From IMG/VR virus record IMGVR_UViG_3300028840_001562: a stretch of 64,000 bases of DNA; one strand, written 5' to 3'. Origin of the DNA: an uncultured virus (IMG/VR IMGVR_UViG_3300028840_001562) (taxonomy: Duplodnaviria > Heunggongvirae > Uroviricota > Caudoviricetes). A program made the position numbers and the translations under genes. The notes beneath the pieces are model-generated. The model saw nothing but the letters and a program-made list of their open reading frames with translations. It was not told the DNA's origin and ran no database searches. This document shows positions 7,971 to 34,966 of this stretch, in pieces. The first letter of the stretch is position 1, and the number at the start of each line of letters is the position of its first letter.

Positions 7971-7987
7971 TATTACTGAGTAATAGT
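7971..7987 (+). promoter_or_regulatory. Operator copy 3 within a probable promoter
   Basis: TATTACTGAGTAATAGT exactly fills the 17 bp between TTGAGG and TACCTT. Confidence 0.7.
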
Positions 7988-7997
7988 TACCTTATGT

Positions 7998-8651
7998 ATG
8001 AGGAGGAAAGCTATGAAGGAAGTGTATGGGAAGGTGCTCGCTATACAAAGCGAGATGACGAAACTGCCCAAGAATGGGTACAACTCTTTCCACAAGTACG
8101 CCTACGTCACCGAGGCTGATGCCATGGAGATGTTCAGGGACTTGTGCGTCAAGCACGGTGTTGTCGTGATCCCCACCATCTCCATTGTTGCCCACAACGG
8201 AGATCTCACCACCATCAATGCCTCGTATCGCATTATCGACTGCGATACGGGAAAGGAGATAACGTGTGAGATCCCCGGCCAAGGCCAAGACAAGGGAGAC
8301 AAGGGAATTTATAAGGCGATAACAGGTAGTTATAAGTACTTCATTATGAAAACATTTATGATTCCCACCGGTGACGATCCAGAGCGTGACGAGGGCGTGA
8401 AGCCAGTGCAAACCAAGAAAGCCTATACGCCGACGGCATCAAGCTCAAGCAACCCGCTGTGGTCCTCTGAGTTCAAAGGGAAGATGTATCTACACGCGAT
8501 CCCATGCAAAGAGTTCTCAGAAGAAGAACTCGCTAACGCTGGGCTGAAGCAGGGCAAAAAGAGCTGGTACATGGAGTACGACGAAGACACCTACAAACAC
8601 CTCGAGGAACTCCTCTATAACATGAAGGACACAAGCGATGTCCCGTACTGA
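7998..8651 (+). CDS. erf: ERF-family single-strand annealing protein
   Basis: KNGYNSFHKYAY, GQGQDKGDKGIYKAITGSYKY, IPTGDDPE. Confidence 0.88.
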   Translation: MRRKAMKEVYGKVLAIQSEMTKLPKNGYNSFHKYAYVTEADAMEMFRDLCVKHGVVVIPTISIVAHNGDLTTINASYRIIDCDTGKEITCEIPGQGQDKGDKGIYKAITGSYKYFIMKTFMIPTGDDPERDEGVKPVQTKKAYTPTASSSSNPLWSSEFKGKMYLHAIPCKEFSEEELANAGLKQGKKSWYMEYDEDTYKHLEELLYNMKDTSDVPY

Positions 8652-8744
8652 CAAGAAAGACCCCAACAAACCAATCATTGACTTCCTTGGTTCCCTTTCC
8701 AAGCTCATGGTAAAGATTACCAAAAAGCAAGGGGAAACAAAGAA

Positions 8745-8942
8745 ATGATCTATGTCGTTATTGCGTGGCTCGTCATACTCACTGGAATATGGGTCTTCCA
8801 GCTGGTCCGCAAGGGAAAGCCGCGCTCAACCCAACGCCGTGACCAAGAGATCGACCTGGTTGTGGAAGATATCCGAGATCACGGCGTTGGGTACTTAGAA
8901 ATCACAAGAATAGATCCTGACAAGGTGTTCTATCGTGAATGA
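8745..8942 (+). CDS. Small single-TM protein
   Basis: N-terminal hydrophobic helix; overlaps the start of the dehydratase gene. Confidence 0.6.
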   Translation: MIYVVIAWLVILTGIWVFQLVRKGKPRSTQRRDQEIDLVVEDIRDHGVGYLEITRIDPDKVFYRE

Positions 8943-9879
8943 TAAAGTTGTTCTGATAGTTGGCGGAACAGGAACGCTTGGTCAAATGATTCTGCCAAAA
9001 CTTATAGACACATCAACAAACGTTAGAGTTCTCTCAAGGGGAGAGCATAAACAAGTAGAGCTTGCCCACAAGCACAAAGACGTTGAGTTTATGCTTGGCG
9101 ATGTTGCAGACCGTGAACGCGTAGAAATAGCCTGCCGTGGTTGCGATGAAGTCTACCACTTCGCCGCCATCAAACACGTCCACAAAGCAGAGCGTGACGT
9201 TCACCAGGCCATCAAGACAAACGTTCTCGGGACTCTCAACGTAATCAATGGCTGTATCCGAAACAACGTGAGCAAGTGCATATTCACAAGCACAGACAAG
9301 GCCGTTGAACCCCTTAACGTATACGGGGCATCGAAACTACTGGCAGAACGTGCGTGGATAGCTGGCAACCAAGGAGCACACAACTCTAGGTTTTCTGCTG
9401 TGCGCTACGGCAACGTCCTTGCCTCTAGTGGTTCAGTCCTTGAGCTGTGGCTGAAGCAACGCGACAAGCAAGAAGCTCTTACCATAACAGATCCAGAGAT
9501 GACGCGCTTCTTTCTAACCGTGGAAGAAGCCGCCACGTTTGTCTTCCAGTGTATGCAAGAGATGGAAGGTGGCGAGGTGTTCATCCCCAAGGTCAAGGCT
9601 ACCTCCATGAAGATGATGGCCAATATGTTGTCTGACAGAATCAAGAAGACCGGCGTAAGACCTGGCGAGAAAATGCACGAGGTCTTGATAAGCAAGAACG
9701 AGATGATGCAGGCAAGAGACGCGGGGCATTGCTTTATCAGATACCCAGACACTGACTGGTTCACCTTTGAAACAAAGGGACAGTGGTTGCCGAAGGATTT
9801 CGAGTACACATCCCTAACAGCCCAACAGTACACAGACAATGAACTGAGGGACTTGCTATGTACTTTATTGCAGAAATAG
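8935..9879 (+). CDS. pseB: UDP-GlcNAc 4,6-dehydratase (PseB/FlaA1/CapD family)
   Basis: GGTGTLG, HFAAIKHV, STDKAVEP.NVYGASK, VRYGNV..SSGSV, MTRF, GVRPGEKMHE. Confidence 0.9.
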   Translation: MNDKVVLIVGGTGTLGQMILPKLIDTSTNVRVLSRGEHKQVELAHKHKDVEFMLGDVADRERVEIACRGCDEVYHFAAIKHVHKAERDVHQAIKTNVLGTLNVINGCIRNNVSKCIFTSTDKAVEPLNVYGASKLLAERAWIAGNQGAHNSRFSAVRYGNVLASSGSVLELWLKQRDKQEALTITDPEMTRFFLTVEEAATFVFQCMQEMEGGEVFIPKVKATSMKMMANMLSDRIKKTGVRPGEKMHEVLISKNEMMQARDAGHCFIRYPDTDWFTFETKGQWLPKDFEYTSLTAQQYTDNELRDLLCTLLQK

Positions 9880-10499
9880 GCTCATGCCACATGGGCAAGC
9901 TGGACTATGCCAAGGAGGCCATTGACCTTGCAGCTGAGGCCGGCGCTGATGTCTGTAAGTTTCAGTTATTCAGAGGCAAACAGTACACCAAGAGCGGAAA
10001 CATCGAGCTAAGCGAGGATCTGTGGCGCGACATCGTGGAGTATGCAAAGGACCGAATACCAGTCACTGCAAGTGTGTTCGACAAACATACCTATTTGATG
10101 ATTAGGGGTTGCTCTGGCTTGCCGTTTATCAAGTTCGCCTATTCTCAACTTCACAACTACGACTTGCAGAGCAGGGCATACCGGGCTGGATATGACATTA
10201 TCGTCAGCTGTGACCACATGACTTATAAGATACCGCATCACAAGGCCAAGAAGCTCTATTGCGTGCCCGAATACCCGGTAAAATATAAGATTGATTTCGA
10301 GGGTTGTTTTCCCAAGTTCGATGGGTTCTCAGATCACACCTATGGATTAGAGCAGACATTCGCCGCAGTACGTCGTGGTGCACAGATCATCGAGAAGCAT
10401 TTCAAGCTAGATCATGATGACATTGTGTGCCCTGATGCTGAGTTCGCTATCACACCAAACAAACTAAGGGTTCTTGTTAAGCACTTGAGGGAGATATGA
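9858..10499 (+). CDS. neuB: Nonulosonic acid synthase (NeuB/PseI family), lacking the C-terminal AFP-like domain
   Basis: FIAEIG..H.G, KFQ, GFSDHT and IIEKHF motifs. Confidence 0.9.
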   Translation: MYFIAEIGSCHMGKLDYAKEAIDLAAEAGADVCKFQLFRGKQYTKSGNIELSEDLWRDIVEYAKDRIPVTASVFDKHTYLMIRGCSGLPFIKFAYSQLHNYDLQSRAYRAGYDIIVSCDHMTYKIPHHKAKKLYCVPEYPVKYKIDFEGCFPKFDGFSDHTYGLEQTFAAVRRGAQIIEKHFKLDHDDIVCPDAEFAITPNKLRVLVKHLREI

Positions 10500-11212
10500 A
10501 GGTTCTAGTCATTGGTGGAAATGGCTCTATAGGCAAGCGCTATTGTGCCATCTTGCGTTATCTCAAGGTGAACTATGAGATTTACGAGATCAACGATGTG
10601 TTGGCTAATTCGGCGCCACCAGAGGCTGACAGGTGGCTGATCGCATCTCCCACTTCAACCCACTTCGAGTATTGTATGGAAGCTATTAAGCGCAGGAAGC
10701 CATTCTTGTGCGAGAAGCCGCTATCTAAGTCTCTGGATCAGTGCAGGGAGATCAGGGATGCTGCCCAAGCGGCTGATGTTGATGGCCGGGTGGTATGTAA
10801 TTACAAGATAGCATTTGAGATAAATTTTGGTGGGACTGTGTTTGAAGGGGCGCTGCCCTACAAATACGAGTATTTCAACACTGGCAAAGACGGTGTGTTT
10901 TGGGACTTGTGCCAGTTGATATACATGAATCCCAACCTGTTGATAGACACAGATAGCCCGACATGGTGTTTGTGGATGCACCAACCGAAGCAGCCATCCA
11001 GGACTTTCGTAGACGCAGAGAAACCACAACCAAGCATATTCATCCTGGAATGTCTTGAGCAATCTTATCGCCAAATGATTCAAGCGTGGTTTCGAGATAA
11101 CCCGAAATGGCCAAATCTTGGCATAGAATCTCTATGGTCTTTAGATGACGGAGTAAATATGACCAAGGCGGTTATTGAAAGAATGGAAAGAGAAAAGGTG
11201 AAGATTTTATGA
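10496..11212 (+). CDS. Gfo/Idh/MocA-like NAD(P) oxidoreductase
   Basis: VIGGNGSIG, IASPT..H, LCEKP. Confidence 0.8.
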   Translation: MKVLVIGGNGSIGKRYCAILRYLKVNYEIYEINDVLANSAPPEADRWLIASPTSTHFEYCMEAIKRRKPFLCEKPLSKSLDQCREIRDAAQAADVDGRVVCNYKIAFEINFGGTVFEGALPYKYEYFNTGKDGVFWDLCQLIYMNPNLLIDTDSPTWCLWMHQPKQPSRTFVDAEKPQPSIFILECLEQSYRQMIQAWFRDNPKWPNLGIESLWSLDDGVNMTKAVIERMEREKVKIL

Positions 11213-11282
11213 GCGGAAATGTCTGAGGCTATATTTTTCAGCTTGATTGTAATGGCGAAACTTCAAGACAAAGAAACGGAGA

Positions 11283-11960
11283 TTGAATCTTATGAAGACG
11301 CTAATAGGAATACAAGTCAGGGCCAGAAGCACCAGGCTTCCGAATAAGCACCTTGAGGAGATCGGCGGCAAGAGCTGCTTGCAGCACGTCTGGGACAGTG
11401 CACAGGACGCCTCCAAGGTGAAGCGCAGTGGTGAGGAGGTCGTAGTTTCCTTGCTTGTTCCGGAGGATGAGAAGCTTGCGTTTGTTAACCTTGGCTTCGA
11501 TCCCATCTTCTATGGTGACGGTGCCGACCTTCTTGGCCGTTATGCCTCGGCTGCCATACATTATAGCGCTGATCGCATCGTCAGGGTTACAGGTGACTGT
11601 CCCATGTTGCCTCCAATGTTGATCCTAAAGTGTATGGAGCAGTTACAGACCGTTGATTACAGCTCCAATACTACGGAGCGCACCTACCCAGACGGTTATG
11701 ATATACAAGGGTGTTCCAAGGAAGCCTTGTTATGGTTCTGCCATAACCAGAACGGAGAGAGGGAGCACCCCTTTGTTTTATTCGACAAGAACCAGATGGT
11801 GCGTGAGCAGTTCACAGCGGACGGGTTCAAGTGGGGTCAGATTATCAATGCGGAGTGTATTAATCAACGCAAGGTGTCGTTGGATACAAGGGAAGACCTC
11901 GAATGTATAAGGCGTTTTTATGATGCAATGCGAGCACCCAAGGTGGTGTCGGCGAGCTGA
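11283..11960 (+). CDS. Cytidylyltransferase (SpsF/PseF/NeuA-like)
   Basis: IQVRARSTRLPNK, RIVRVTGDCP, YPDGYD, SLDTRED. Confidence 0.88.
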   Translation: MNLMKTLIGIQVRARSTRLPNKHLEEIGGKSCLQHVWDSAQDASKVKRSGEEVVVSLLVPEDEKLAFVNLGFDPIFYGDGADLLGRYASAAIHYSADRIVRVTGDCPMLPPMLILKCMEQLQTVDYSSNTTERTYPDGYDIQGCSKEALLWFCHNQNGEREHPFVLFDKNQMVREQFTADGFKWGQIINAECINQRKVSLDTREDLECIRRFYDAMRAPKVVSAS

Positions 11961-13125
11961 GCGGGCTATCGCTCAGACAACCTGCACCAATTCCAAGCGC
12001 CCATCGGCGTTTATTGAGGGCATTTATCCTACTCATGTCGCAAAGGGGCATGGGTGTTATCTCTATGATGTTAAAGGAAACAGGTACATAGATTTCGTAG
12101 GGGGACTTGGCACCAATATTCTTGGTTACGGTCATCCGAAGGTTACTGAGGCGGTGGTAAAGTATGCCTATCGTGGTCCGTCGTTGTCACTGCCTCACAC
12201 CTTGGAGGTTGAGGTGGCCGAGAAAGTGAAGGACATGTTTCCGTTTATTGAGAAGGTACGCTTTTTCAAAACGGGTTCGGAGGCATGTTCTGCTGCGGTG
12301 CGTATAGCCAGAGCGTACAATAGTTCTGGGAACTATGTTATCAGCGATGGCTATCATGGGTGGCATGACTTGTTCACATCCATGTCGAGTCCTGCTTTGG
12401 GGGTCCGTGATTCATTCTGTGCTGTAGACACCTTCTCATACAACCCAACCACCTACTACGCAGCATGTTGGATCACGGAACCCCTCCATTTAGATGCTTC
12501 TCCTGATCGGATTAAGGAAGTGCGTCGTTGGATGGGGTTAGCTGAAAAGAACAATTTTGTTACAATTTTCGACGAAATTGTGACCGGTCTTCGCGTGCCC
12601 AACCACAGCGTGGCTAGCTGGTGGAAATTAAAGCCTGATTTGATCTGTCTTGGGAAGGGGATAGCGAATGGTTATCCGTTATCCATAGTGGGTGGCAGGT
12701 CGGAGGTGATGGATTGTGGCGAGTGGTTTTGCTCTTCTACTTATGCTGGTGACGTGGTGTCTTTGGCGGCGTGCCAGGCGACGCTCAACGAGGTATCGAA
12801 GAACAAGAGCGTGGAGGACCTCTTCTTCTATGCGGACAATTTCTTATCCTCGTTGAACAGCATTTTAGACCTGATCGATGTTGAGATCGAGGGCTATGGC
12901 ACCAGGGGCTTGCTTGACGTATCTACCCGTAACGCTGCCCTGCTTATGCAAGAGTGCTGTAAGGCCAACATATTATTGGGAAAAGCTTATTTCTTTTCAT
13001 GGGCTCATCTTGAGGCTGAGATCACAGAGCATGTCCTGAACGTTATAGGAGACGTTGTAGAGCGCATCAAACGGGGCAGGACGCGCCTTGAGGGGCCCAT
13101 GCCGATACAAACCTTCAAGAGGTGA
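11920..13125 (+). CDS. PLP aminotransferase class III (GSA-aminomutase-like sugar aminotransferase)
   Basis: GCYLYDV.GNRYIDF, FKTGSEA, FDEIVTG, DLICLGKGIANGYPL. Confidence 0.88.
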   Translation: MMQCEHPRWCRRAERAIAQTTCTNSKRPSAFIEGIYPTHVAKGHGCYLYDVKGNRYIDFVGGLGTNILGYGHPKVTEAVVKYAYRGPSLSLPHTLEVEVAEKVKDMFPFIEKVRFFKTGSEACSAAVRIARAYNSSGNYVISDGYHGWHDLFTSMSSPALGVRDSFCAVDTFSYNPTTYYAACWITEPLHLDASPDRIKEVRRWMGLAEKNNFVTIFDEIVTGLRVPNHSVASWWKLKPDLICLGKGIANGYPLSIVGGRSEVMDCGEWFCSSTYAGDVVSLAACQATLNEVSKNKSVEDLFFYADNFLSSLNSILDLIDVEIEGYGTRGLLDVSTRNAALLMQECCKANILLGKAYFFSWAHLEAEITEHVLNVIGDVVERIKRGRTRLEGPMPIQTFKR

Positions 13126-13128
13126 GAG

Positions 13129-13453
13129 AATGGACGTTACAGCGGCAGCAGAGGCTTTAGGGGTGGATTCTCGGTGGCTATCCAGGGCCATATGGCATCA
13201 TCGTGTGCCCTTATTCGGTCGTCGTTGTTATATGGGCGGTGTTGTGTATGAGGCTAAGCCTGGTGCATTGCGGTGGTTGGTGGACAGGTCACCTGATGCC
13301 ATCGTCTATGCTTATCGGCGCAAGCATTGTTCAGAGGCTGTCAAATACGAAGTGTTATCAAAGCGTTATGGTGTGTCTCGTTACGAAAAGGGGCAGTTGC
13401 CTAGTGGTTATGCAGACTTAGAGCACACAACGCTATGGTTAGCGGAGGCTTAG
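13129..13453 (+). CDS. Hypothetical protein, possible HTH
   Basis: MDVTAAAEALGV..RWL pattern. Confidence 0.5.
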
Positions 13454-14059
13454 TTGATGGTATCTGTAGATCGTAACGAGTTGAAGTTAAGGTTATCTCC
13501 TGAGTTACCTCATGAGCAGTTAAAGTGGCGCAATGATGCTCGTATTTGGCGTTGGTGTCGTCAGAATCACATCATCACCAGGGCTCAGCAGATGGAGTGG
13601 TTGGATCGCATAGAGATGGATCCTGCGATACAGATGTTTGGTATTGACTCATCCAAAGCCGGGTTAGTTGGGACCTGTGGTTTAACGGGGATCAACACCT
13701 ATCATCGCACGGCTGAGTTTAGCCTATTTATAGGTCCTGAGTATCATGGCCATGGTTATTCACGCCCAAGCCTGGTCCTATTATTGGATTATGGGTTCAA
13801 CCGGATGAACCTGAAGTGCATCTACGGAGAGGTGATAGCTGGCAACCCAGCGTTAAGCCTATTCTTATCTGTTGGTTTCCGTGAGGAGGGTATTCATCAT
13901 TGTCGGTACTTCAAGCATGGCAAGTATCATGACGCAGTGAGCATCTCTATCACGGATGGTGAGTACAGGAAGAGGGGTATATATGAGACGGTATTTGATG
14001 ATTCTATTGATGCTGGTGATGGTTGGCATGTTATTCGGATGGTGGACAAGGACCGCTGA
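13454..14059 (+). CDS. GNAT N-acetyltransferase (PseH/RimJ-like)
   Basis: KWRND, VGTCGL, AEFSLFI, GHGY, YGF..MNL, GF..EG. Confidence 0.85.
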   Translation: MMVSVDRNELKLRLSPELPHEQLKWRNDARIWRWCRQNHIITRAQQMEWLDRIEMDPAIQMFGIDSSKAGLVGTCGLTGINTYHRTAEFSLFIGPEYHGHGYSRPSLVLLLDYGFNRMNLKCIYGEVIAGNPALSLFLSVGFREEGIHHCRYFKHGKYHDAVSISITDGEYRKRGIYETVFDDSIDAGDGWHVIRMVDKDR

Positions 14060-14177
14060 GTGTGTGTGGTGTCCTAGTTACACATGTTATGGGTCCTGTC
14101 CTAGTGGTTGTGTGTGTGTTACCCCTCCTGGTCAAGTTGGGGGCAAGTGCTATGGCATAGGTGTAGTGCCTGAATGA
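13983..14177 (+). CDS. Secreted Cys-rich mini-protein
   Basis: Signal-peptide-like N-terminus followed by 7 Cys. Confidence 0.55.
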   Translation: MRRYLMILLMLVMVGMLFGWWTRTAECVWCPSYTCYGSCPSGCVCVTPPGQVGGKCYGIGVVPE

Positions 14178-14365
14178 ACGGACTAGTAGCTTTAGTTATT
14201 GTTTTTCTTTTTTCTCTTTTGTCTTTTGCAGCTGGCTGGCTGATATGTGCTTCTACCAAGAAGGACATGCCTAAGTCAGTCAGTAGGTCTAACTCAGAGT
14301 ACCCTGTATGTAGGGATGATGACGAGACAGCATACAGGAGAGAGAGAGAAGTAGGTCGGATATAA
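14174..14365 (+). CDS. Small single-TM protein
   Basis: ATGA overlap with the previous ORF; hydrophobic N-terminus. Confidence 0.55.
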   Translation: MNGLVALVIVFLFSLLSFAAGWLICASTKKDMPKSVSRSNSEYPVCRDDDETAYRREREVGRI

Positions 14366-14933
14366 CACGGACATTAGGGGTTTGGGCACCCCCTGTGCGC
14401 GGCTATGGCCTCAAGCAGAGCTACGCCCCCTCTGGAGTCTTCTGGGTAGCTTCCGGGAAAAGAGAAAGAAAAAAGAATCCATCTACTCTGAGGTTCTTAC
14501 TTCTCTTCATCTGTTCTCTCTTACTCCGTGTGCCCTTTAATACGCTCTCTCCTCGAGTTAGTTGGTGTCTCGTACCACGTTGATGGTCACATACCTGTCC
14601 GGTACCGTTACATGCAGTAAGTCCGAATAGGGGCGGAGTTATCTCCAGTCCGCTCCCTCCCACATGATTGGGCGCCTCATAGGCCATACCGATGGGACCA
14701 TCTCCTAACACGGTAGGGGTTAGCTCCCCTACTGAGGGATTTTGAACAGATCCCAATGAACTGCATTTGTTGCTTGTTTTGAAAAGGTCTATGTGGTAGG
14801 TGGTGTTCATACGTAGTTCGTTCCTAGAGTCATAGTCGGGGCCAGCAGGATGTCAAGCATCTTCTGGCCTCGACTAGCATCTAGGCTATTACACTTGCCT
14901 TTCTAATAACAAAAGCATTACACTGTAACAGTC

Positions 14934-16064
14934 ATGGCTGGCAAAAGCGGTCCCACACAACTCCAGATCGAATACGTTGAACCACAAACACTCGTCCCAG
15001 ATAAGACCAACCCACGATCCATTACAGAAAAAGAACTGTCTAAGTTGCGGAAAAGCTTAGATACTTTCGGATTCGTTGAACCCATCATAGCTAGACGAGA
15101 AGATAACTTAATCATAGGCGGGCATCAACGCGTTAAGGCGAACAAAGAGGCAAAGATTCCGGTTATTTATGTTGAAGGGATGTCAGACGAGAAGGCAAGG
15201 CTGCTCAATATCGCACTGAACAAGATACAGGGCGAGTTCGATGAGCCAAAGCTACGAGCCGTACTACAAGCCCTACATGAAGACGGAGCAGACCTAACAC
15301 TGTCAGGCTTCGATGAAGCAGAACTGAAACCACTAGTAGCAGTTGGAACAGATCTCCTCACAGATCCAGATGAGGTGCCGGAAGTTAAAGATGAAGATGT
15401 TTATGTGAAAACGGGGGATTCATGGAATTTGGACGGGAGTATTGTAACTTGTTGTGATTCAACAGATATTATGATTAACAGGGATGTTTTGACAGATCCG
15501 CCCTATGGTATGAAAGCAGTAGAAAATAGCGGAGTTTTAAAAGCCAAAGGGTACCCTCCGATTTGTGGAGATGTGGATAACACGGTTGCCTGTAAATTTG
15601 CTAAACAGATGAATGATCTACCAAGTCATAAAGTTGTTTTGTGGGGCGCTAATTATTATTCTAATGTTTTGCCAGCATCCTCATGCTGGATTGTCTGGGA
15701 CAAGAAAAACGGGCTTTCAGATCAAATGGACTGTGAACTAGCATGGACAAACATAAATGGAGTAACTCGAAAATTTGAGTGTGCAACAGAGAAAGTAGAT
15801 AGAAAACACCCTACACAGAAGCCAGTAGCGTTGCTGGCTTGGGTTTTGGAAAGATTCGACATGGGGGAAGATATTTATGATCCATTCGGTGGGGCAGGCT
15901 CTACTTTGATCGCTTGTGAACAAACAGGCCGCAAATGTGTCATGATGGAAATCGACCCATACTACTGTCAGGTGATTATAGAAAGATGGCAAAACGCAAC
16001 GGGAAAAAAAGCAAAGCTGTTGCAACGCGGCGAGGACGCAAAGGACTCTACTCCCCAGAGATAA
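14934..16064 (+). CDS. ParB-like N-domain fused to an N6/N4 DNA methyltransferase
   Basis: NPR...FGFVEPII...IIGGHQR; TDPPYG, HPTQKP, DPFGGAGST. Confidence 0.9.
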   Translation: MAGKSGPTQLQIEYVEPQTLVPDKTNPRSITEKELSKLRKSLDTFGFVEPIIARREDNLIIGGHQRVKANKEAKIPVIYVEGMSDEKARLLNIALNKIQGEFDEPKLRAVLQALHEDGADLTLSGFDEAELKPLVAVGTDLLTDPDEVPEVKDEDVYVKTGDSWNLDGSIVTCCDSTDIMINRDVLTDPPYGMKAVENSGVLKAKGYPPICGDVDNTVACKFAKQMNDLPSHKVVLWGANYYSNVLPASSCWIVWDKKNGLSDQMDCELAWTNINGVTRKFECATEKVDRKHPTQKPVALLAWVLERFDMGEDIYDPFGGAGSTLIACEQTGRKCVMMEIDPYYCQVIIERWQNATGKKAKLLQRGEDAKDSTPQR

Positions 16065-16390
16065 CAGAAGAGATCTGTAAGATCCTCGCAGCAGGTTGTA
16101 CCGATAAAGATGCCTACGAATACGTCGGCCTTAACCATGACTCGTTCTATAAGTGGTTGAACAAACACGCTGAATTTGCTGAGGCAGTAAAAAGAGCCAA
16201 AACCAAAGCACGAGTCGCAGTAACCAACAAACTCGTTGAACTTATCAATGACAAAAACCTAGGAGCCATCGTGTGGTGGCAGAAAAACCGCGACCCAGAA
16301 AACTGGAAAGACTCCCCAGAAGTCGTCGTCCAGTCCAATACCCAAGTAAACGTGGTCGCTAATGGCGAAAAAGCCTCACTACCTATCTAA
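15986..16390 (+). CDS. terS: Terminase small subunit
   Basis: HTH pattern (YSPEITEEIC...FYKWL...EFAEA) directly before TerL. Confidence 0.8.
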   Translation: MAKRNGKKSKAVATRRGRKGLYSPEITEEICKILAAGCTDKDAYEYVGLNHDSFYKWLNKHAEFAEAVKRAKTKARVAVTNKLVELINDKNLGAIVWWQKNRDPENWKDSPEVVVQSNTQVNVVANGEKASLPI

Positions 16391-17714
16391 GCCTAAAACC
16401 GTAGGCACCATCAAACTCCACGAAAAACAGGGACAGGTGTTCTTCGCCGATAAGAAGTACAGGGAAATACTAGCCTGTGCAGGCGAACAAGGTGGCAAGA
16501 GCTTCATGGGGGCACTGTGGCTCGCTAAACAAGTCTGTGAAGATCAGAACTATGCGTATAACTATGTCGTAGGCGCCCCAACCTACAAGATCATGGAACA
16601 ATCAACCAAGATCGCCTTCAACCGAGTGTTCACCAGTGTTTATGGTGCACCAGAAGGGAAAACAGACAGTTTCAAGCTGAAAACAGGCGGCAAAATATAC
16701 TTCCGCTCCTCTACTGACCCAGATTCGGTCATAGGTATTCCCGACTGTAAGGCAGCGTGGGTGGATGAGCTGGGGAAGTGCTCAAGATTGTTCTACTATA
16801 ACGTCAGAGGCAGGCTGGCACGACTACAAGGCCGTGTACTAGGTACTACCACCCCCTATGCGCTCAACTTCGTCAAGAAAGAGATCATAGACCCCGCAGA
16901 ACGGGGAGACAGAGAGGACATCTTCTACCGTAAGTGGGCCTCCGTTGAGAACCCAAGCTACCCCAAGGAAGAGTACGAGCGTAACCGAGCCCTCCTGCCA
17001 CCCAAGATCTTCGCCATGCGGTTCGGCGGTGAACATGAACAGATGGAAGGGCTGGTATACGACTGCTTCAGCCACGCCAACGTCATAGAGCCCCATGACC
17101 TACAAGACGCCATACACTATGCCGGGGTGGACTGGGGACACCGTAACCCGTTTGCCATGACTATACGAGCCGTCACACCAGAAGGACGTCACTACACGGT
17201 AAGTGAGTTCAAGAAGGCCGGCCTTACACCAGATGAGATGCTAGACGCCGCCAAGGCCAAGCACAGCGTGTTCAACATCAAGACCTTCTTCTGTGACCCC
17301 TCCAACCCAGCTATGATATTGGCCCTACAGCGTGCCGGCCTGTCTGCTTGCGGCTTTCATGAGGCATCGCCCCAACATAAGCAGATAATGTCGGGTGTAG
17401 AGGCCCACTATGCCCTCATCAAGTCCAACAACTACTTTGTGTTTAAAGGCCGCTGTCCACACCTAGAAGACGAGTACTCCACCTACCACTACGACAAGGA
17501 CGTCGAGGGCAAGAACCAGAAGGAAAACCCCGTCGCTGAAGATGACCACCTGATGGACTGCGAGCGATACGTTACAGTAGGTACATTGCATTTGACATAC
17601 AACATGGGCGTCAGTAGAATGACTGCCGATAAGGTACCGTCCAACCCATTTACGCGCAATGTCGATAGACTACTCAGACCCAGCCGGCAGGAAAAGCGTT
17701 GGGATGACTACTAA
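16362..17714 (+). CDS. terL: Terminase large subunit
   Basis: AGEQGGKS Walker A, WVDE Walker B, TTTP, GVDWG, CDPS, DDHLMD. Confidence 0.93.
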   Translation: MAKKPHYLSKPKTVGTIKLHEKQGQVFFADKKYREILACAGEQGGKSFMGALWLAKQVCEDQNYAYNYVVGAPTYKIMEQSTKIAFNRVFTSVYGAPEGKTDSFKLKTGGKIYFRSSTDPDSVIGIPDCKAAWVDELGKCSRLFYYNVRGRLARLQGRVLGTTTPYALNFVKKEIIDPAERGDREDIFYRKWASVENPSYPKEEYERNRALLPPKIFAMRFGGEHEQMEGLVYDCFSHANVIEPHDLQDAIHYAGVDWGHRNPFAMTIRAVTPEGRHYTVSEFKKAGLTPDEMLDAAKAKHSVFNIKTFFCDPSNPAMILALQRAGLSACGFHEASPQHKQIMSGVEAHYALIKSNNYFVFKGRCPHLEDEYSTYHYDKDVEGKNQKENPVAEDDHLMDCERYVTVGTLHLTYNMGVSRMTADKVPSNPFTRNVDRLLRPSRQEKRWDDY

Positions 17715-17960
17715 GTGGGCAAGATAGATGACATTCTAAAGTCCCGACAAGCTCCCGGCATCCACATCAAAACCACGTTCTCTCCTTACTTTAATCATGG
17801 GCTCGGCAAGTGGATACACAAGCCAAGCGACGTACAAGAGAACATCAAGAAGCTGAATGACGAGACTGGCATGGATGTAGTCGAGATGGGTAACGACGAC
17901 CATCCAGATGACCTCAAGCCAGAACGCAAGCCATACCCATCGCTGAATGAGTTTGATTAA
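17715..17960 (+). CDS. Hypothetical protein
   Basis: Exactly fills the terL-portal gap. Confidence 0.6.
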   Translation: MGKIDDILKSRQAPGIHIKTTFSPYFNHGLGKWIHKPSDVQENIKKLNDETGMDVVEMGNDDHPDDLKPERKPYPSLNEFD

Positions 17961-19735
17961 TGGAAAAAGGCATCGGAATTGTAGACTTACACGCCCAAGT
18001 CCGTGATGAGCCCAGGTCAACCGAGCAGAGCGAGGAACAGCAAGATACAGCCAAGATGGTCAACGAGCTTTGGCTTCGCTCTAAAAGGAGGCTTCAGACC
18101 TCGTTCAGACGGTTTCAAGAGAACAGAGACTTTTTTCTAGGTAGGCAGTGGAGTCGTAGACGTCCATCATATCGCTGTAGCGAGGCCATCAACATATGTT
18201 GGGCATACATCCAGACTCTTGTGCCAATCATGACGGATAACCGCCCCAAGACTGAATACAAGCCACCAGAGCCAGATGACCGTGAGTTTTCAGAGATCCT
18301 AACTCAGGTCAACGACTCTCTTTGGGAGAAGTACAGTTGGGACTTCACTCTGACACAGGCCATCATCGACTCCATGATCTATGACTATAGTCATATGGGT
18401 GTGTTCTGGAATCCAGAGCTAGAGGATGGCATGGGCGACGTCGAGCTGAAGCTCATGTCGCCTTGGAACTGCTTCCCGGACCTGTCAGTGCCTGACATCA
18501 ACCCGTTTGGTCGCTACTTCATCCATGCTGAGCCTGTCCCATTAGGGGAGATGAAAAGACAGTATCCAGAGCAGGCCCATCTGCTGCACTCAGACGTTGA
18601 GTCACTGATGGACCGTGTTGGTAGGGATGAAGACCGCAAGACCATCTTTCACAGCCCCCAGGATGCTGGAAGACCCGAGCCAGAACCGGAGATGACTGAG
18701 CTAGATAAGCCCATCATGAAGGTTCAATGCTGGCTAAGAGACAACACGACCATTGAGGAGTGTCTTGAGGACGACGACGGCAACAAGAGGACTGTGACCA
18801 AGCGTAAGTGGCCAAATGGTCGCTATATTGTCATAGCCAACAACATCATCCTTCGTGATGAGGAGATGCCATACAAGGATGGCATGATCCCAGTGGTTAA
18901 GCTGGTAGATCATGGGTTGCCACGTGAGTACGCTGGAATGGGTGAGATTGACCAGGTTAAGGGGATTCAGAGGCTGGTCAACACGACCACTTGCTATATC
19001 GCAGATACCATGAAGCAGAGCGGCAACCCCATCTGGCTGTTCGGGGCAACGTCTGGTGTGGAAGTGGACAACGTAACCAACGAGCCTGGCCTTAAGATCA
19101 CAGCAACCGATGTTAACCAGGTTAAGCGGTTCGCTGGTGAGGGGATGCCTGGCTATATCATGTCCTATTTGGACAACCTTCTTGGTCTTGGCAACCTGGT
19201 GTCTGGTGTGCAGGACACGACTCGTGGAGCAGTACAGCCCGGCGTAACGTCAGGGTTGATGCTTGAGGGCTTCATTGAGGCTGCTCAGACAAGGATTAGG
19301 CTTAAGAATAGGAATTTGGATAAGGCCATTAGGGAGATTGGACGCATGGTGGCATCAAGGATCATGCAGTTCTATGGTGTGCCCAGGGTGTTCAGGATCA
19401 CCAACAAGCAGGGCTTCCCTGAGTTCTTTGAGTTCTTTGTTACAGAAGAGGGCAACCAGCAGTACGCTCATATCAAGCGTGCTGCCAATGGCCCCAACAT
19501 GGGTTTTGACAAGAAGCTGGTTAAGGGGATGCCTGATGTATCTGTGACAAGCGGTAGCGCTCTTCCGTTTGTTAAAGCTCAGAAGGCTGCAACTGCTATC
19601 ACCCTGTTTAATAACGGGATTATTGACGAGGAAGAGGTCTTAAAGGCCCATGATTGGCCGAACAAGGAAGAGGTCTTACGTCGTGTCGTGGAGAGGAAGC
19701 AGGCCATGGCACAGCAAGCAGGAGGTGGACAGTGA
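17960..19735 (+). CDS. Portal protein (P22-like)
   Basis: 591 aa after terL; F.GRQW, G.GEI....GIQ, VSGV....RG motifs. Confidence 0.85.
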   Translation: MEKGIGIVDLHAQVRDEPRSTEQSEEQQDTAKMVNELWLRSKRRLQTSFRRFQENRDFFLGRQWSRRRPSYRCSEAINICWAYIQTLVPIMTDNRPKTEYKPPEPDDREFSEILTQVNDSLWEKYSWDFTLTQAIIDSMIYDYSHMGVFWNPELEDGMGDVELKLMSPWNCFPDLSVPDINPFGRYFIHAEPVPLGEMKRQYPEQAHLLHSDVESLMDRVGRDEDRKTIFHSPQDAGRPEPEPEMTELDKPIMKVQCWLRDNTTIEECLEDDDGNKRTVTKRKWPNGRYIVIANNIILRDEEMPYKDGMIPVVKLVDHGLPREYAGMGEIDQVKGIQRLVNTTTCYIADTMKQSGNPIWLFGATSGVEVDNVTNEPGLKITATDVNQVKRFAGEGMPGYIMSYLDNLLGLGNLVSGVQDTTRGAVQPGVTSGLMLEGFIEAAQTRIRLKNRNLDKAIREIGRMVASRIMQFYGVPRVFRITNKQGFPEFFEFFVTEEGNQQYAHIKRAANGPNMGFDKKLVKGMPDVSVTSGSALPFVKAQKAATAITLFNNGIIDEEEVLKAHDWPNKEEVLRRVVERKQAMAQQAGGGQ

Positions 19736-20061
19736 CAGTAAAACAGTTTGAGGATCTAGTTGTTTCACTAGAGGCTACTCAAGCCTCCTCTGCTGATGTC
19801 GGCATCGACGTGTTGCGTTGGGCGCTGGATGAGCTTAAGAAGAAGGCTCCCAAGGTGACATCTAAGCCGGTTGTTACGGCGCCGCCAGCTGAAGTGAAGA
19901 AGGTGAAGCATGGGAAAAAGTAAGGCCGACACGAAGAAAGAGGCTAGGAAGAAAGCCTTTGAGCGTCTTATCAAGGCAGACTCATTCCTAACACGCCGCA
20001 TTGCCAAGGTGGACAAGATATTAGCCGACGAGGATACGATGCTGAAGAAGAGGGGGAAGTG

Positions 20062-20229
20062 ATGCCTTTCGTATCTCAAGCACAGCGTCGCTTTATGCAC
20101 GCCAAGCATCCCAAGATCGCCAAGGAGTTCGAGGAAGCTACACCGAAAGGTGTTAAGTTGCCGGAAAAGGTAAGGAAAAAGAGAATCAGAAGAGAAGCCA
20201 TGAAACGAATGGCCGGGAGGGAAACGTAG
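20062..20229 (+). CDS. Small basic phage protein (MPFVSQAQRRFMHAKHP...)
   Basis: Translated by eye; stop-start coupled on both sides. Confidence 0.65.
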   Translation: MPFVSQAQRRFMHAKHPKIAKEFEEATPKGVKLPEKVRKKRIRREAMKRMAGRET

Positions 20230-20526
20230 ATGCCGGAACAAATGCAACCACAACAGCAACAAGCACCACCGCAGGGTGATCCTATGGAGGCTATTCAGAC
20301 TCTTGGGGCGTCCTTGCAAGCAATGGTTGAGGGCTTCAGAGGATCTCAGAACCCAGCCGCACAGAAAGCGTCTGAGATGTTCGCTCAAGCCCTTACCTAT
20401 TTCAATCAAGGCGTTCAGGTCTTGGGGGGCGCTGGGGCACCAGAAGGGCCCGTTCCAGAGGGACAGGCTCAGGGCACCCAGCCTGTTGAGGCAGCAGGTA
20501 CATCACAACCAGTTCCTATTGGTTAA
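20230..20526 (+). CDS. Gln/Pro-rich hypothetical protein
   Basis: Coupled ORF in the head operon. Confidence 0.6.
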   Translation: MPEQMQPQQQQAPPQGDPMEAIQTLGASLQAMVEGFRGSQNPAAQKASEMFAQALTYFNQGVQVLGGAGAPEGPVPEGQAQGTQPVEAAGTSQPVPIG

Positions 20527-20535
20527 GGAGGCAGT

Positions 20536-21429
20536 ATGCCGGATGAAGGGGTTATCAACCCTACAGAAAGTCAGGATTCTCTGTTCTCGTCCAACCCTAC
20601 GGGTGATACTGGACAGACGGATGTGATGACTGGTGAAGATGTTGGGCAACAACAGCAGGCTCAACAGAAATCAGGCATCGATCTAGATGCAGAGGTCCCC
20701 ATAACTTACCGGGGGGATACGATACCAGTCCCTCTAAAGAAGCTAGTTAATCACTATCAGCTAAGGCATGACCTTCAAGAGAACCAAGCGGCCTTCAAAC
20801 AAGAGAAGGCACAGTGGGAAGCAGAGAAGCAGCGTTATGAGGAAGCATCTCGTCTATACGACAAATATCATGCTGTGGATCAACATGCCGTACAGAATCC
20901 CGACTGGTGGCAGCATGTTTCTGAGGCCTACAACAATCGAGGTTCCTTTACGGGTGATGAGGAGATCAGTCCTCAAATTGCTAATACGCTGAACCAGGTT
21001 ACTCAGACTTTGGAGTCTATGAATCAGAAGATCCAGAGTTTCGAGAGCAAGTTCAGCGAAGTCGAGGTTAAAGAAGAAGAGAAACTCATCGATCAGGAGT
21101 ACACGTCCTTGAAGAAGGAGTTTGAGTTCTTTGACTTCGAAAGTCCAGATGAGTCGGGGTTAACCCCCAAAACTCGCATCCTGAAACATGGTGCGGATCA
21201 TGGGTTCCCCACGTTCAAAGCCGCGTTTTTCGACCTCTATGGCAACCAGTTGATTAAGACAGCCAAAGAAGGAGCTATGAAAGAAACGACGGAGGCGATC
21301 AAGAAGTCCAAGCAGGCCGGTGTTATCAACGTTGGGGCAACAGCTGGTCCCACCGAGGCGAAAGTCAACACCAGGCAAAGCTGGGACGAGATGACAGAGA
21401 AACTTAAACAAGAATACGGAGTAATTTAA
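20536..21429 (+). CDS. Putative scaffolding protein
   Basis: Acidic coiled coil immediately before the capsid gene. Confidence 0.7.
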   Translation: MPDEGVINPTESQDSLFSSNPTGDTGQTDVMTGEDVGQQQQAQQKSGIDLDAEVPITYRGDTIPVPLKKLVNHYQLRHDLQENQAAFKQEKAQWEAEKQRYEEASRLYDKYHAVDQHAVQNPDWWQHVSEAYNNRGSFTGDEEISPQIANTLNQVTQTLESMNQKIQSFESKFSEVEVKEEEKLIDQEYTSLKKEFEFFDFESPDESGLTPKTRILKHGADHGFPTFKAAFFDLYGNQLIKTAKEGAMKETTEAIKKSKQAGVINVGATAGPTEAKVNTRQSWDEMTEKLKQEYGVI

Positions 21430-21431
21430 CA

Positions 21432-22355
21432 ATGGCACTTACTTGGGATAATGTTAACGCGATCAGTCGCAAATATTATGTGCCCAAGTTGGTGGACAAC
21501 ATCTTCGACAGCAATGCCTTCTTCATGAGAATGAAGAAAAAAGGCAAGATGCCAACCTATAGTGGCGGCACAAAGATTATGCAGCCGATCATCTATGCCA
21601 CAAATACAAGTGGTGGGTGGTATTCCGGAGATGCAAACCTGACCATTGACGCAGTTGATACAAAGACTGCGTTGGAGTTCAACCCGAAGTTTGGCTATCA
21701 GTCGATTACTGTGCTTCGCACTGACATTTTGAAGAACAGTGGCGATGCGGCGGTGATCGATCTTGTTAAGGCTGAGTTTCAGGTAGCTGAGCGGTCCATG
21801 CGTGATCGCTTTGGTACTGGTTTGTTCTCGGACGGTACGGATAGCGAGTCCATCACTGGGGCAAGAGTGTTTTGTTCAACGAGTTCGACCTATGGTGGGA
21901 TTTCTCAATCCACCTATTCATGGCTCCAAAGCCAGGTAGACTCTAGTAGCACAACGCTAACGATTCCGACCTTGCAGACTCAGTTTGAGGCTGCGAGTGA
22001 GGATAATGACATGCCGACTGTCGCTTTTACGACCGGCACGCTGTACAACGCATATTATGGCCAGTTACAGCCGCAGCAGCGTTTTAGCGATGGCGACACG
22101 GCACGTGGCGGGTTTAAGAACATCCTGTATAACGGCATCCCCGTTATGATTGACAGTCATGTACCTGCGAATCACTGGTTCTTCTTCAATGAGAACTACA
22201 TTGATTTGCGTACACACAAGGATGAGAACTTCCGCTTTGAGCCGTTCCTGCGTGTCCCGCAGAACAACGTGAACTATGCGAAGATTTGGTGGGCTGGTGA
22301 GCTGGTTTGCTCAGCTCCTCGCTACCAGGCTCTTCTCAGTGCATTGACTGGTTAA
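21432..22355 (+). CDS. Major capsid protein
   Basis: 307 aa; PKLVDNIF..N, GGFKNI.YNGIPV..D motifs; position after the scaffold. Confidence 0.85.
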   Translation: MALTWDNVNAISRKYYVPKLVDNIFDSNAFFMRMKKKGKMPTYSGGTKIMQPIIYATNTSGGWYSGDANLTIDAVDTKTALEFNPKFGYQSITVLRTDILKNSGDAAVIDLVKAEFQVAERSMRDRFGTGLFSDGTDSESITGARVFCSTSSTYGGISQSTYSWLQSQVDSSSTTLTIPTLQTQFEAASEDNDMPTVAFTTGTLYNAYYGQLQPQQRFSDGDTARGGFKNILYNGIPVMIDSHVPANHWFFFNENYIDLRTHKDENFRFEPFLRVPQNNVNYAKIWWAGELVCSAPRYQALLSALTG

Positions 22356-22366
22356 GGGGGTGAATC

Positions 22367-22891
22367 ATGACAACGCCTTATGGATATAGGGTTAGCTTTC
22401 GTGATTCCGTGTCGAGCGTAACTGCGACGATCCCTTCCGGTTATGCACTTGGCATGGAACGCATTGATGGTGGAACAACTTATCGTTATTGTTACAATGC
22501 TGGTAACTCCCAGATTGGGCCAGGTTACTGCTTCAAGACAGTAGGCGGCGGAAGTGGCCCCTACAGCATCACGATTTCGACAACAACCGAAGTCATTTCG
22601 GATACGCTTGGCGTCATTCCTGGTGCTCACAATACGGCCACAACCGGTACTTACTTCTGGGCAGCAACCAAGGGCGAGGTTGGGAAGCTGCTTGTGTCGA
22701 ACGTTTCCATTGCTACAGACGCAGCTATCGCTGTGGCTGCCAATGGCGCCTTGACCAAGCTGACATCCAACACCGCTGCAATCGGCATCAACCTTGGAAA
22801 CAGCAACGGAACAGGAGCAACCGACACACTTAGTGGCGACTTCTTGATCGACTGTGAGTCTCTCAAGTACGCCATGACAATCGAGGCATAA
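22367..22891 (+). CDS. Capsid decoration/cement-like protein, Ser/Thr-rich
   Basis: Follows the capsid gene; G..YRY and YFW...G motifs; about a quarter Ser+Thr. Confidence 0.65.
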   Translation: MTTPYGYRVSFRDSVSSVTATIPSGYALGMERIDGGTTYRYCYNAGNSQIGPGYCFKTVGGGSGPYSITISTTTEVISDTLGVIPGAHNTATTGTYFWAATKGEVGKLLVSNVSIATDAAIAVAANGALTKLTSNTAAIGINLGNSNGTGATDTLSGDFLIDCESLKYAMTIEA

Positions 22892-23958
22892 TGTCTAAGG
22901 AAATCCTTTCACTTGGCAGGGAGTACCAGCCACTTATTAGCAGGCCACCGCAGGCCGAGCAGGACATGTATCGACAAGCATGTTCTGCGGATGACATCAC
23001 GGTGAAGTCCTGGAAGCATACCTGGCTGGAGAACTACAGATCCATTCGGGATAAGTACGGTGGGTTCGAGAATGTGACTTATGGCAAGTTGCAAGGCAAG
23101 AACAGACACCGCCCTGCTATCGTTATCGGGGCCGGGCCATCTGTTGGTAGATCGCTGGAGGCATTGAAAGAGTCGGGAGATATTTTGAGCATTTCCTGTC
23201 TACATAACTATGCCTACTTCGAGGACAACGAGTGGCACCCTGATTACTACCTAACGCTTGATGCTGGCGCGGTGGTGATTGATGACATGGTGGAAGCCGG
23301 AACGAAGGAACGTGAACATTACTTCGAAACAACGAAGGACAAGCACCTCATTGCTTGTAGTTTCACGGATCCACGCTTGCTAGACTTGTGGCAGGGAGAG
23401 GTGAGCATTTTCAACTGCTTGATTCCCAATCTGGAGTTTCAGAAGGAATTGAACGCGATTGAACGCTTTTCCCACTACATCTCTAGCGGTGGCAACGCCC
23501 TTGGCGCTTCGATGTATACGGCCAAGGTAATCATGGGCTCAAACCCGATCATGTATGTTGGAGCTGACTTCTGTTTTTCCCATGACAAGAAGTTTCATAG
23601 CTGGGGCAGCAAGTACGACGATGTGGGCAACGCGATACGTTGTTTCGACGTGTTTGGTATGCCGCGTTATACTTGGCAGAGTTACTACAACTTCAAGATC
23701 TGGTTTGAGTACATTGCCTGCAAGGTTCCTGGTATTTGGATTAACTGTTCAGATGGCATCTTAGGTGCTTATCGTGACGGGAACATCAGCCAGTTCGTTT
23801 ACCAGGAACTAAAAGAAGCGCTTGTGCAGTATACGATGGCCGACGTTATTTACAGGCACAAGATCAACGATAAGGGCGAGAAAATAGAGGAAAAGACGTA
23901 CAAACTGAGCGACTATTTTTCTAACACCAAACATGAAGACGATCTGATATTGTTTTAG
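22891..23958 (+). CDS. maf: Maf/DUF115 (MptE-like fold) putative nonulosonate transferase
   Basis: AIVIGAGPS, HPDY..TLD, SGGNA, G.NPI.YVGADF.F motifs. Confidence 0.8.
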   Translation: MSKEILSLGREYQPLISRPPQAEQDMYRQACSADDITVKSWKHTWLENYRSIRDKYGGFENVTYGKLQGKNRHRPAIVIGAGPSVGRSLEALKESGDILSISCLHNYAYFEDNEWHPDYYLTLDAGAVVIDDMVEAGTKEREHYFETTKDKHLIACSFTDPRLLDLWQGEVSIFNCLIPNLEFQKELNAIERFSHYISSGGNALGASMYTAKVIMGSNPIMYVGADFCFSHDKKFHSWGSKYDDVGNAIRCFDVFGMPRYTWQSYYNFKIWFEYIACKVPGIWINCSDGILGAYRDGNISQFVYQELKEALVQYTMADVIYRHKINDKGEKIEEKTYKLSDYFSNTKHEDDLILF

Positions 23959-23968
23959 GAGTTTAACA

Positions 23969-24265
23969 ATGGCGTATACAGTAACCACAAGGAAACATTG
24001 GGTTGGTGGCGATACGCGGGCCGTGGCGTTGGAAGTCACTGCTGATGCGGCAACACAGAATGTGAACACCAACTTGAAGTACATTCACTTTTTCACGGCG
24101 ACGCCGAAAAGCATGGTAGCTTATACAACGCTGTCCGCTGGCATTGCCGCTGGTTGGGTCATCAACAAGAACAAGCTGGCGGCTGGAACGGCTGCGAATG
24201 GTTATTTGGCAGTATCTAATGCCACAAGCGGGGATGAATACGAGATCGTCGCCTATGGCCGTTAG
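23969..24265 (+). CDS. Small Thr/Ala-rich virion protein
   Basis: Composition, C-terminal IVAYG, head operon position. Confidence 0.6.
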   Translation: MAYTVTTRKHWVGGDTRAVALEVTADAATQNVNTNLKYIHFFTATPKSMVAYTTLSAGIAAGWVINKNKLAAGTAANGYLAVSNATSGDEYEIVAYGR

Positions 24266-24276
24266 GGGGTTGAATC

Positions 24277-24648: not shown

Positions 24649-24656
24649 GAGGAGAG

Positions 24657-34958: not shown

Positions 34959-34966
34959 GGGTTGGC

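Follow-up and report, generated by a model that had tools for sequence, protein, structure and literature searches.

Nonulosonate genes and a Maf-type transferase among the head genes of podovirus-like phages: a probable system for coating the virion with a sialic-acid-like sugar

The window studied here is a stretch of 64,000 nucleotides from an uncultured tailed virus (IMG/VR IMGVR_UViG_3300028840_001562), in which a cassette of sugar genes is followed by a stand-alone Maf (DUF115) transferase gene lying among the head genes. An earlier note, made from the sequence alone, had proposed that a 34-kb phage uses these genes to make a CMP-activated nonulosonate and to glycosylate its own particle. 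Positions 1-34,368 were found to be a complete circular podovirus-like phage, identical at 100% to the IMG/VR record G002, a 100% complete sequence of 34,464 bp with direct terminal repeats, and this bears out the size given in that note. The open reading frames (ORFs) it had named are present on the + strand, as are all long ORFs of the window, and their expected families were matched above the Pfam cut-offs (Table 1). The phage encodes terminases, a portal of the P22/SU10 type, a major head protein, an adaptor and a probable nozzle (Pfam, PHROG), and no tape measure or tail tube is found among its Pfam/PHROG matches; this gene set is the reason for calling it podovirus-like. The cassette (8935-14059) takes up 5.1 kb, about 15% of the phage genome, and its GC content is 0.486 compared to 0.497 for the whole phage. 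The intergenic gaps within it are -22, -4, +70, -41, -38 and 0 nt.

Table 1. Genes of the sugar cassette and of the packaging/head block in the window, with the basis of each assignment
Feature	Coordinates	Strand	Basis and remarks
PseB-like UDP-GlcNAc 4,6-dehydratase, 314 aa	8935..9879	+	PF02719, 265 bits
Short NeuB-family nonulosonate synthase, 213 aa	9858..10499	+	PF03102, 83.7 bits
Short Gfo/Idh/MocA NAD(P) oxidoreductase, 238 aa	10496..11212	+	PF01408; Atlas feature/structure matches Gfo-family or related
SpsF/PseF-like cytidylyltransferase (CMP-ulosonate synthetase)	11283..11960	+	PF02348
Class III (glutamate-1-semialdehyde aminomutase (GSA)-like) pyridoxal phosphate (PLP) aminotransferase, 401 aa	11920..13125	+	PF00202
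ORF within cassette, 121 aa	13088..13453	+	No Pfam, PHROG or NCBIfam match; singleton among 21 records
PseH-like GNAT N-acetyltransferase, 201 aa	13454..14059	+	PF13302
Terminase small and large subunits, P22/SU10-type portal	15935..19735	+	Pfam, PHROG; start of packaging/head block
Major capsid protein, 307 aa, candidate acceptor	21432..22355	+	phrog_9953 major head protein
Capsid decoration/cement protein, 174 aa, candidate acceptor	22367..22891	+	Low-confidence model, predicted local distance difference test (pLDDT) 59; stop overlaps Maf start
Stand-alone Maf (DUF115/MAF_flag10) GT-A glycosyltransferase domain, 355 aa	22891..23958	+	PF01973, model, fold match
Small Ser/Thr-rich protein, 98 aa, candidate acceptor/adaptor	23969..24265	+	No family match (Pfam, PHROG, NCBIfam)

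The DUF115 protein matched PF01973 with 54.2 bits against a cut-off of 34.6, and its only significant sequence match in the PDB was the Maf of M. magneticum, 5MU5. The same structure was also the best fold match of the predicted model (pLDDT 94.8), with Z 22.0, a root mean square deviation of 3.0 and 242 residues aligned, whereas MptE (8SD5) was second with Z 14.1 and sialyltransferases followed with Z 7-9; Foldseek gave 5e-12 for Maf versus 3e-6 for MptE. The residues D124 and D226 align with E324 and D415 of 5MU5, the two acids described as essential in the available text of the study on bacterial Mafs (10.1101/2020.06.03.131540), and both are invariant in 61 aligned of the 120 listed homologues. 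With the Maf fold as the top structure match and both acids kept, the protein was found to be Maf-like and not MptE-like, in line with the earlier note.

The phage protein shares with the bacterial flagellin Mafs (M. magneticum 5MU5; Clostridium botulinum, Geobacillus, Shewanella) the GT-A/DUF115 fold, the two essential acids and the link to nonulosonate genes. On the other hand, it has only 355 residues in comparison to 666 in 5MU5, at the end of its model are a beta-hairpin and a single short helix, the conserved Ser appears not to be kept, and its gene adjoins capsid genes instead of flagellin. In the accessible part of the Shewanella work, Mafs bind flagellin through a tetratricopeptide repeat (TPR) domain or a GlfM partner (10.1101/2023.12.03.569772). 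There is no TPR or other additional domain in the phage model and no GlfM was identified, and with capsid genes as neighbours the features needed for flagellin recognition are thus not found here. From sequence and model, the phage protein would therefore be Maf-like in its working, yet not a flagellin Maf. It had no match among 50,697 phage records. A fold search has further brought up more distant DUF115-fold proteins in other uncultured phages and in mimivirus-like viruses, some of them fused to methyltransferases, so that Maf-like transferases, as far as predicted folds tell, are spread in viruses more widely than the lineage of the window phage.

The position of the gene is highly conserved. 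With a Maf profile, 160 matches were obtained in viral sequences and at least 295 in metagenomes, and the best 80 of each were used, the two sets overlapping and containing near-duplicates. The decoration gene lies directly upstream of Maf at 75/75 viral and 59/59 metagenome loci with enough flank, the order capsid-decoration-Maf is kept at all testable loci (72/72 viral and 52/52 metagenome), and the gene of the 98-aa protein directly follows Maf at 72 of the 74 viral and 59 of the 61 metagenome loci; no cellular setting was seen for the Maf clade among loci with enough flank. In the window, the decoration gene and Maf overlap by a TAATG stop-start, the coupling within the head genes which had been noticed before. 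Selection by the capsid protein instead of Maf (best 80 of 209; 74 loci scored with enough flank, 6 too short) flagged Maf in 73/74 loci, the sole miss (L225) being an anchor error, in truth with about 200 bp of downstream DNA; this test is partly circular, as its patterns were derived from Maf-bearing genomes. The complete genome G016 has three copies of the 98-aa gene behind Maf (L026:11056-11900).

Co-inheritance with the sugar genes was followed in 19 Maf-bearing records of at least 33 kb, G002 included. The aminotransferase is present in all 19, the cytidylyltransferase in 18, PseB, NeuB and GNAT in 17 each and Gfo in 16, and the full six-gene set in 14/19; the survey of viral contigs, a check named in the earlier note, has found the nonulosonate genes to co-occur with a DUF115 gene that is fixed in the head module. 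Of the 50 longest records, 35 had NeuB, as did 14/16 of those at least 90% complete; among the 19 genomes, 4 have it inside the cassette and 13 in a block immediately upstream of the terminase. The reverse test, in which 50 of 79 aminotransferase-selected records (chosen for length, mostly outside the Maf set) were searched, found Maf in 27/50, and in 17/18 of those at least 90% complete. Going by gene content, Maf and the sugar genes are core genes of the phage lineage. None of the 120 closest relatives of the aminotransferase is on a contig longer than 51 kb, and many of these contigs have 33-42 kb, so this clade looks phage-resident. In G019, an FkbM methyltransferase and a TET/JBP-like oxygenase lie upstream of the terminase gene (L097:9041-10506).

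The cassette enzymes retain their catalytic motifs. In the PseB-like protein, T120-D121-K122 and the YxxxK pair Y130/K134 are shared by 90% or more of 18 family members, and its best NCBIfam match is PseB (TIGR03589) with 280.7 bits, below the cut-off of 407.75. The NeuB residues S158-D159-H160 and E179/H181 align with S213-D214-H215 and E234/H236 of N. meningitidis NeuB, which we take to be metal and phosphoenolpyruvate (PEP) ligands, and the TIM-barrel motifs SDH and EKH (E179-K180-H181) are kept in at least 90% of 19. The proposed NeuB synthase is therefore supported by PF03102 and its motifs; however, it ends at 213 residues without the C-terminal SAF/antifreeze-like domain, whereas longer family members retain a C-terminal extension. 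Shorter NeuB forms do exist, the solved 6NCS having 290 residues. The cytidylyltransferase carries an invariant Q-x-R..R-x-P-x-K motif (18 family members), and its NCBIfam matches are of the CMP-Kdo synthetase (KdsB) type, below cut-off. D218-E219 and the PLP lysine K246 of the aminotransferase are likewise invariant in 18, and its PDB matches are GSA aminomutases and aminoglycoside C-6' aminotransferases; the enzyme anticipated in the earlier note is present, but as a class III (GSA-like, PF00202) and not a PseC/DegT protein. The best NCBIfam match of the GNAT protein is PseH (TIGR03585; 54.5 bits versus 93.1). The PseB, PseH, PseI and PseF families were thus all matched, each under the NCBIfam equivalog cut-off and PseF only through PF02348/KdsB-type models, due to which exact substrates are not assignable.

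In the canonical PseB-C-H-G-I-F route, to which the phage contributes PseB-, PseH-, PseI/NeuB- and PseF-like enzymes, two further proteins take part which the phages lack. Neither the PseC type (DegT, PF01041; positive control matched in 14/14 genomes) nor the PseG hydrolase (TIGR03590; positive control matched in 5/14 genomes) was found in any of 37 records, and NeuB is shortened or placed next to the terminase. Enzymes of the families named in the earlier note were matched, but not the canonical route, and from this gene content a self-sufficient pathway to pseudaminic acid from UDP-GlcNAc, PEP and CTP cannot be assumed. Either the host fills in or the chemistry is rerouted. A comparable arrangement is described in the available sections of a study on Aeromonas group I flagellin glycosylation islands, where pseF is flanked by genes for an aldo-keto reductase and for a class III aminotransferase, in addition to pseB and pseC; subgroup IA has the order oxidoreductase, pseF, class III aminotransferase as in the phage, and subgroups ID and IE also have no PseG, whereas an aldo-keto reductase stands where the phage usually has Gfo (PMC7874193).

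Gfo was found in 30/37 records. Among those without it, G020 has an aldo-keto reductase downstream of its GNAT gene, G085 has a weak aldo-keto reductase match, and neither enzyme was seen in the complete records G068, G074 and G081. The replacement in G020 suggests that the oxidoreductase carries out a redox step paired with the class III aminotransferase. Two routes fit these observations. The class III enzyme may take the role of PseC, with UDP removed by the host and a pseudaminic-type sugar as the result. Alternatively, the oxidoreductase/aminotransferase pair may oxidise and aminate a side-chain hydroxyl while the host gives PseC and PseG, by analogy to the synthesis of Kdo8N, in which a side-chain hydroxyl is oxidised and then aminated. 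A nonulosonate that is 9-deoxy and N-acylated is the likeliest product. The idea of Gfo as an NAD-dependent hydrolase replacing PseG, presumably of the GH109-like kind, was ranked low, the protein being absent in 7/37 records with an aldo-keto reductase as substitute in G020 and, weakly, in G085.

Three products of the head block are candidate acceptors. The major capsid protein has a Ser/Thr patch, D170-S-S-S-T-T-L-T177, of which positions 171-174 and 177 are Ser or Thr in 63-66 of 66 distinct family capsids (aligned count) but in 10-20% of 10 Maf-less relatives. These controls are more distant, several from cultured phages such as Mx8, and have no Maf or sugar gene within 5 kb. They carry insertions of variable length in the patch region, which suggests that it is a loop; a patch of this kind could also become fixed by common descent alone. 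Mean Ser+Thr content is 0.175 in family capsids versus 0.140 in the controls, and 0.102 versus 0.101 in the portals, in a comparison of related sequences with distant, mostly higher-GC controls for which the p-value is not a true test. The decoration protein (0.20) and the 98-aa protein (0.195) are also rich in Ser+Thr compared to about 0.10-0.12 in the enzymes. A VIA structure search with the decoration model returned phage or archaeal-virus capsid chains at all of ranks 1-8 (best Z 9.3, root mean square deviation 3.5, 127 residues), and its Atlas neighbours include Phage_cement_2. The conserved 98-aa protein is a probable virion protein. Complex prediction of Maf with the decoration protein scored 0.00 and is not used as evidence. 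A special co-evolution of Maf with the decoration protein was considered and dropped, as Maf tracks the core structural genes in general by distance correlation. A possible further acceptor or fibre is encoded where the tail block ends (33299-34222): this 307-aa protein has three repeats of 32 aa, with a period of 96 nt, in which Ser, Thr, Gly and Val are very frequent.

The enzymes, their catalytic motifs, their co-inheritance and the place of Maf between capsid-surface genes are established by sequence and predicted structure. On this basis it is probable, at roughly 0.68, that a lineage of 33-41 kb podovirus-like phages coats its own particle with a sialic-acid-like sugar, an O-linked nonulosonate on the capsid or decoration protein. 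PseB would convert host UDP-GlcNAc to a UDP-4-keto-6-deoxy sugar, and the oxidoreductase, class III aminotransferase and GNAT would fix its amino/acetamido pattern. UDP would then be removed by an activity which is not phage-encoded, probably a host PseG-type hydrolase, after which NeuB would join the sugar with PEP to a 9-deoxy nonulosonate and the cytidylyltransferase would form the CMP-sugar. Maf, co-translated with the decoration protein, would transfer it to Ser/Thr in the cytoplasm before lysis, the acceptors being the major capsid protein, where S171-T177 is the best candidate site, and/or the decoration protein and the 98-aa one. The likeliest benefit, which is speculative, may be a hydrated acidic capsid surface, with less sticking to particles and non-hosts or a resistance to proteases or grazing. 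The Maf fold with its catalytic residues, the fixed capsid-gene neighbours and the co-inheritance with sugar genes argue for this coating, as do family capsids richer in Ser/Thr while the portals are alike, a phage Maf without flagellin-binding modules, and the precedent of capsid glycosylation in mycobacteriophages.

A number of observations weigh against a capsid coat. The donor route is incomplete as known in all 37 records. A Ser about 23 residues before the second acid is essential in two bacterial Mafs, according to the available text (10.1101/2020.06.03.131540), whereas this region of the phage protein reads G200-G201-N202-A203, with G200-G201-N202 invariant, no Ser/Thr at 202-203 and a register uncertain by one residue. 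The Maf-decoration distance correlation is rho 0.45 versus 0.74-0.82 for the main structural genes, and the relatedness of the sequences in the Ser/Thr comparison has to be counted here as well. The cassettes of G018 and G026 run on the other strand from the structural genes. G019 has Maf but only the aminotransferase of the sugar genes, and G016 and G081 are without NeuB, so that Maf persists without a full phage pathway. Finally, 6/19 genomes encode an integrase, which makes a role in lysogenic conversion possible.

A second podovirus-like lineage (G085, 52 kb and complete; G070; G088) has a similar cassette among its virion genes, and this supports a virion-linked role. Its order is portal, capsid, adaptor, NeuB, PseB, class III aminotransferase, GNAT, DUF354-like protein, cytidylyltransferase and then tail-like genes. 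PF01973 had no match in these three genomes and a single weak match, in G090, among 16 records. The conserved DUF354-like protein (424-457 aa; weak DUF354 matches in 2 of 3) had no PDB sequence match, and our guess is that it is a transferase in place of Maf. The second-lineage cassettes (L186:7640-14348, L168:8193-15997 and L192:7995-14116) have extra formyltransferase, deacetylase or aldo-keto reductase genes. It can tentatively be speculated, with doubt, that a pathway rerouted without PseC and PseG, in which the sugar side chain is aminated by the oxidoreductase together with the class III aminotransferase, makes an unusual nonulosonate (e.g. 8-amino/8-acetamido), that hundreds of capsid subunits receive it from a minimal Maf at the D-S/T-S/T-T-T patch, and that the second lineage reaches the same end with a GT-B-like transferase. 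Long viral sugar clusters with PseB, class III aminotransferase and cytidylyltransferase, often with NeuB and Gfo, were also seen at L178, L202, L203 and L200, together with GT2/GT4 enzymes, methyltransferases, radical SAM or PEP mutase; three of these viruses are estimated to be larger than the window-phage lineage, and at L178 an SU10-type adaptor gene marks the end of the cluster.

The chief rival of the capsid coat is a modification of the host surface. Here the cassette and Maf would alter a glycan on host flagellin, pilin, S-layer or polysaccharide and thereby block superinfection or cause lysogenic conversion. The known Maf acceptors in the available text of the Maf studies are only flagellins (10.1101/2020.06.03.131540, 10.1101/2023.12.03.569772), phage neuABC-type clusters of a lake virome were so interpreted as far as that source is available (10.1101/655167), the cassette resembles the Aeromonas islands and needs host steps (PMC7874193, in part), and an integrase in 6 and an inverted cassette in 2 of the 19 genomes would agree with it. 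We nevertheless regard it as unlikely: Maf lies between capsid-surface genes at all testable loci and is coupled to the decoration gene in the window, it has no flagellin-binding modules, 13/19 genomes gave no match to the integrase family searched, and a late gene of the head operon would suit a lysogeny function poorly. The roles may also be split, with Maf placing a host-made CMP-ulosonate (Kdo, Pse, Leg) on the virion while the phage genes boost or tailor the pool or serve another end. The lack of PseC and PseG, the Maf-bearing genomes without NeuB (G016, G019, G081), the promiscuity of bacterial Mafs, which accept Neu5Ac and Kdo in the accessible part of 10.1101/2020.06.03.131540, and the Aeromonas pair of an aldo-keto reductase with an aminotransferase of class III as add-ons to a complete pse set (PMC7874193, available part) all point this way. 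Still, we hold such a split to be quite improbable, for PseB, NeuB and the CMP-transferase would be needless in a tailoring-only module and yet occur in 17-18 of 19 genomes.

Phage glycosyltransferases often target DNA, as stated in the available part of PMC12619734, and G019 has its TET/JBP-like oxygenase, so the sugar might be put on phage DNA against nucleases. We consider this very improbable, since the window phage has no hydroxymethylase or TET gene among its Pfam and PHROG matches, a single TET-like match was found among 146 relatives' proteins scanned, and Maf is in the head and not in the replication module. A true MptE pterin pyrophosphokinase, its gene being an auxiliary metabolic gene (AMG), is hardly to be expected in the DUF115 protein; the Pfam family is named MptE-like and archaeal MptE has a related fold, but Maf is far ahead in both structure comparisons, the genomic context is different, no pterin or folate gene was matched in the phage (Pfam), and the gene co-occurs with nonulosonate genes. 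The HAHGDN stretch of 8SD5, which we take to be the MptE signature, aligns only at noise level (1.9 bits) and onto non-conserved positions. Finally, the window is itself a join at 34,369, which could raise the question of an artefact or of captured host DNA. This is refuted by the complete circular record and the gene order kept over many independent genomes: the join is 10 kb away from Maf, and the coverage check called for by the earlier note found one contig of 27.9 kb over 7500-25500 with even depth and no differences in the runs X1 and X2, each of which may be the source. The cluster is thus phage DNA and not mis-assembled host DNA.

Virion glycosylation is known from other systems. Giant viruses glycosylate with self-made sugars, and it has reportedly been described in mycobacteriophages (Che8 and relatives) by Freeman et al. 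2023. Mycobacteriophage capsid proteins are glycosylated by phage-encoded glycosyltransferases; unlike here, the Maravista transferases are near the right genome end and not in the head operon (PMC11256854), and the available text of the two sources mentions no nonulosonate donor or Maf (PMC11256854, PMC12619734). The lake-virome genome LBVG_26 (neuABC/capD/pglC) likewise has a phage-encoded nonulosonate pathway, whereas its set has NeuC, PglC and PseA, it was read as a host-surface change, and neither a Maf nor a capsid link appears in the part available (10.1101/655167). The presence of neuB in viromes is recorded in the accessible text of PMC3877843, and the available parts of PMC13317340, PMC12691614, PMC4481668, PMC13477221 and 10.64898/2026.04.20.719630 held nothing decisive. 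No report of a phage Maf/DUF115 or of a nonulosonate virion coat was found in a literature search of listings and abstracts which covered few subscription papers; such genes could stand in virome AMG tables and in the supplements of bioRxiv papers, which lay outside it.

The window as a whole is probably a join of two phages made in assembly, through a 152-nt repeat common to bases 1-152. From 34,369 to 64000 it holds a second, different phage with a Mu-like protease and capsid, tail tube and tape measure (GC 0.459). Tail-tip and lysis-region sequence is common to both, and they may on this account share a host; further blocks of 75% identity are at 34731-34959 and 35495-35684. Just upstream of the terminase genes of the second phage, there are two adjoining ORFs (44070-45927). 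One encodes a 355-aa GT4-like glycosyltransferase, whose PF13439 match is below cut-off, and the product of the other, with 274 aa and no family match, may be another glycosyltransferase; the pair may form a separate glycosylation module. In the first phage, low-complexity coding repeats were seen at 4352-4585 (Ala/Ser/Tyr-rich) and, directly after the DUF6948 gene, at 4941-5208 (Gly/Asp/Tyr/Cys-rich), and a ParB-N6/N4 DNA methyltransferase fusion (14934-16064) lies between the sugar cassette and the small terminase. Scans for sigma-70 promoters (12 promoter-like sites versus 20.3 expected) and for terminators (21 versus 14.9) were uninformative. A host search in GTDB gave 4 matches; each was on a contig of 3-33 kb from a metagenome-assembled genome, and the labels of these genomes were unrelated.

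If true, the capsid coat would involve the first Maf known to act on a non-flagellin target and, within the literature searched, the first tailed phage with a self-made sialic-acid-like donor for its particle. A stand-alone nonulosonate transferase of 355 aa with a short Ser/Thr target would then also be a useful tool for glyco-engineering. The reading would account for many phage genes labelled as MptE-like or GSA aminomutase auxiliary genes. The expense of about 15% of a 34-kb genome on sugar genes that are core to the lineage (160 or more viral matches, and at least 295 from metagenomes) points to strong selection. A chemical layer of this kind is predicted on environmental virions and would bear on their adsorption, decay and capsid proteomics, and if the second lineage does reach the same end, sialic-like coats would be a recurrent virion trait of environmental phages.

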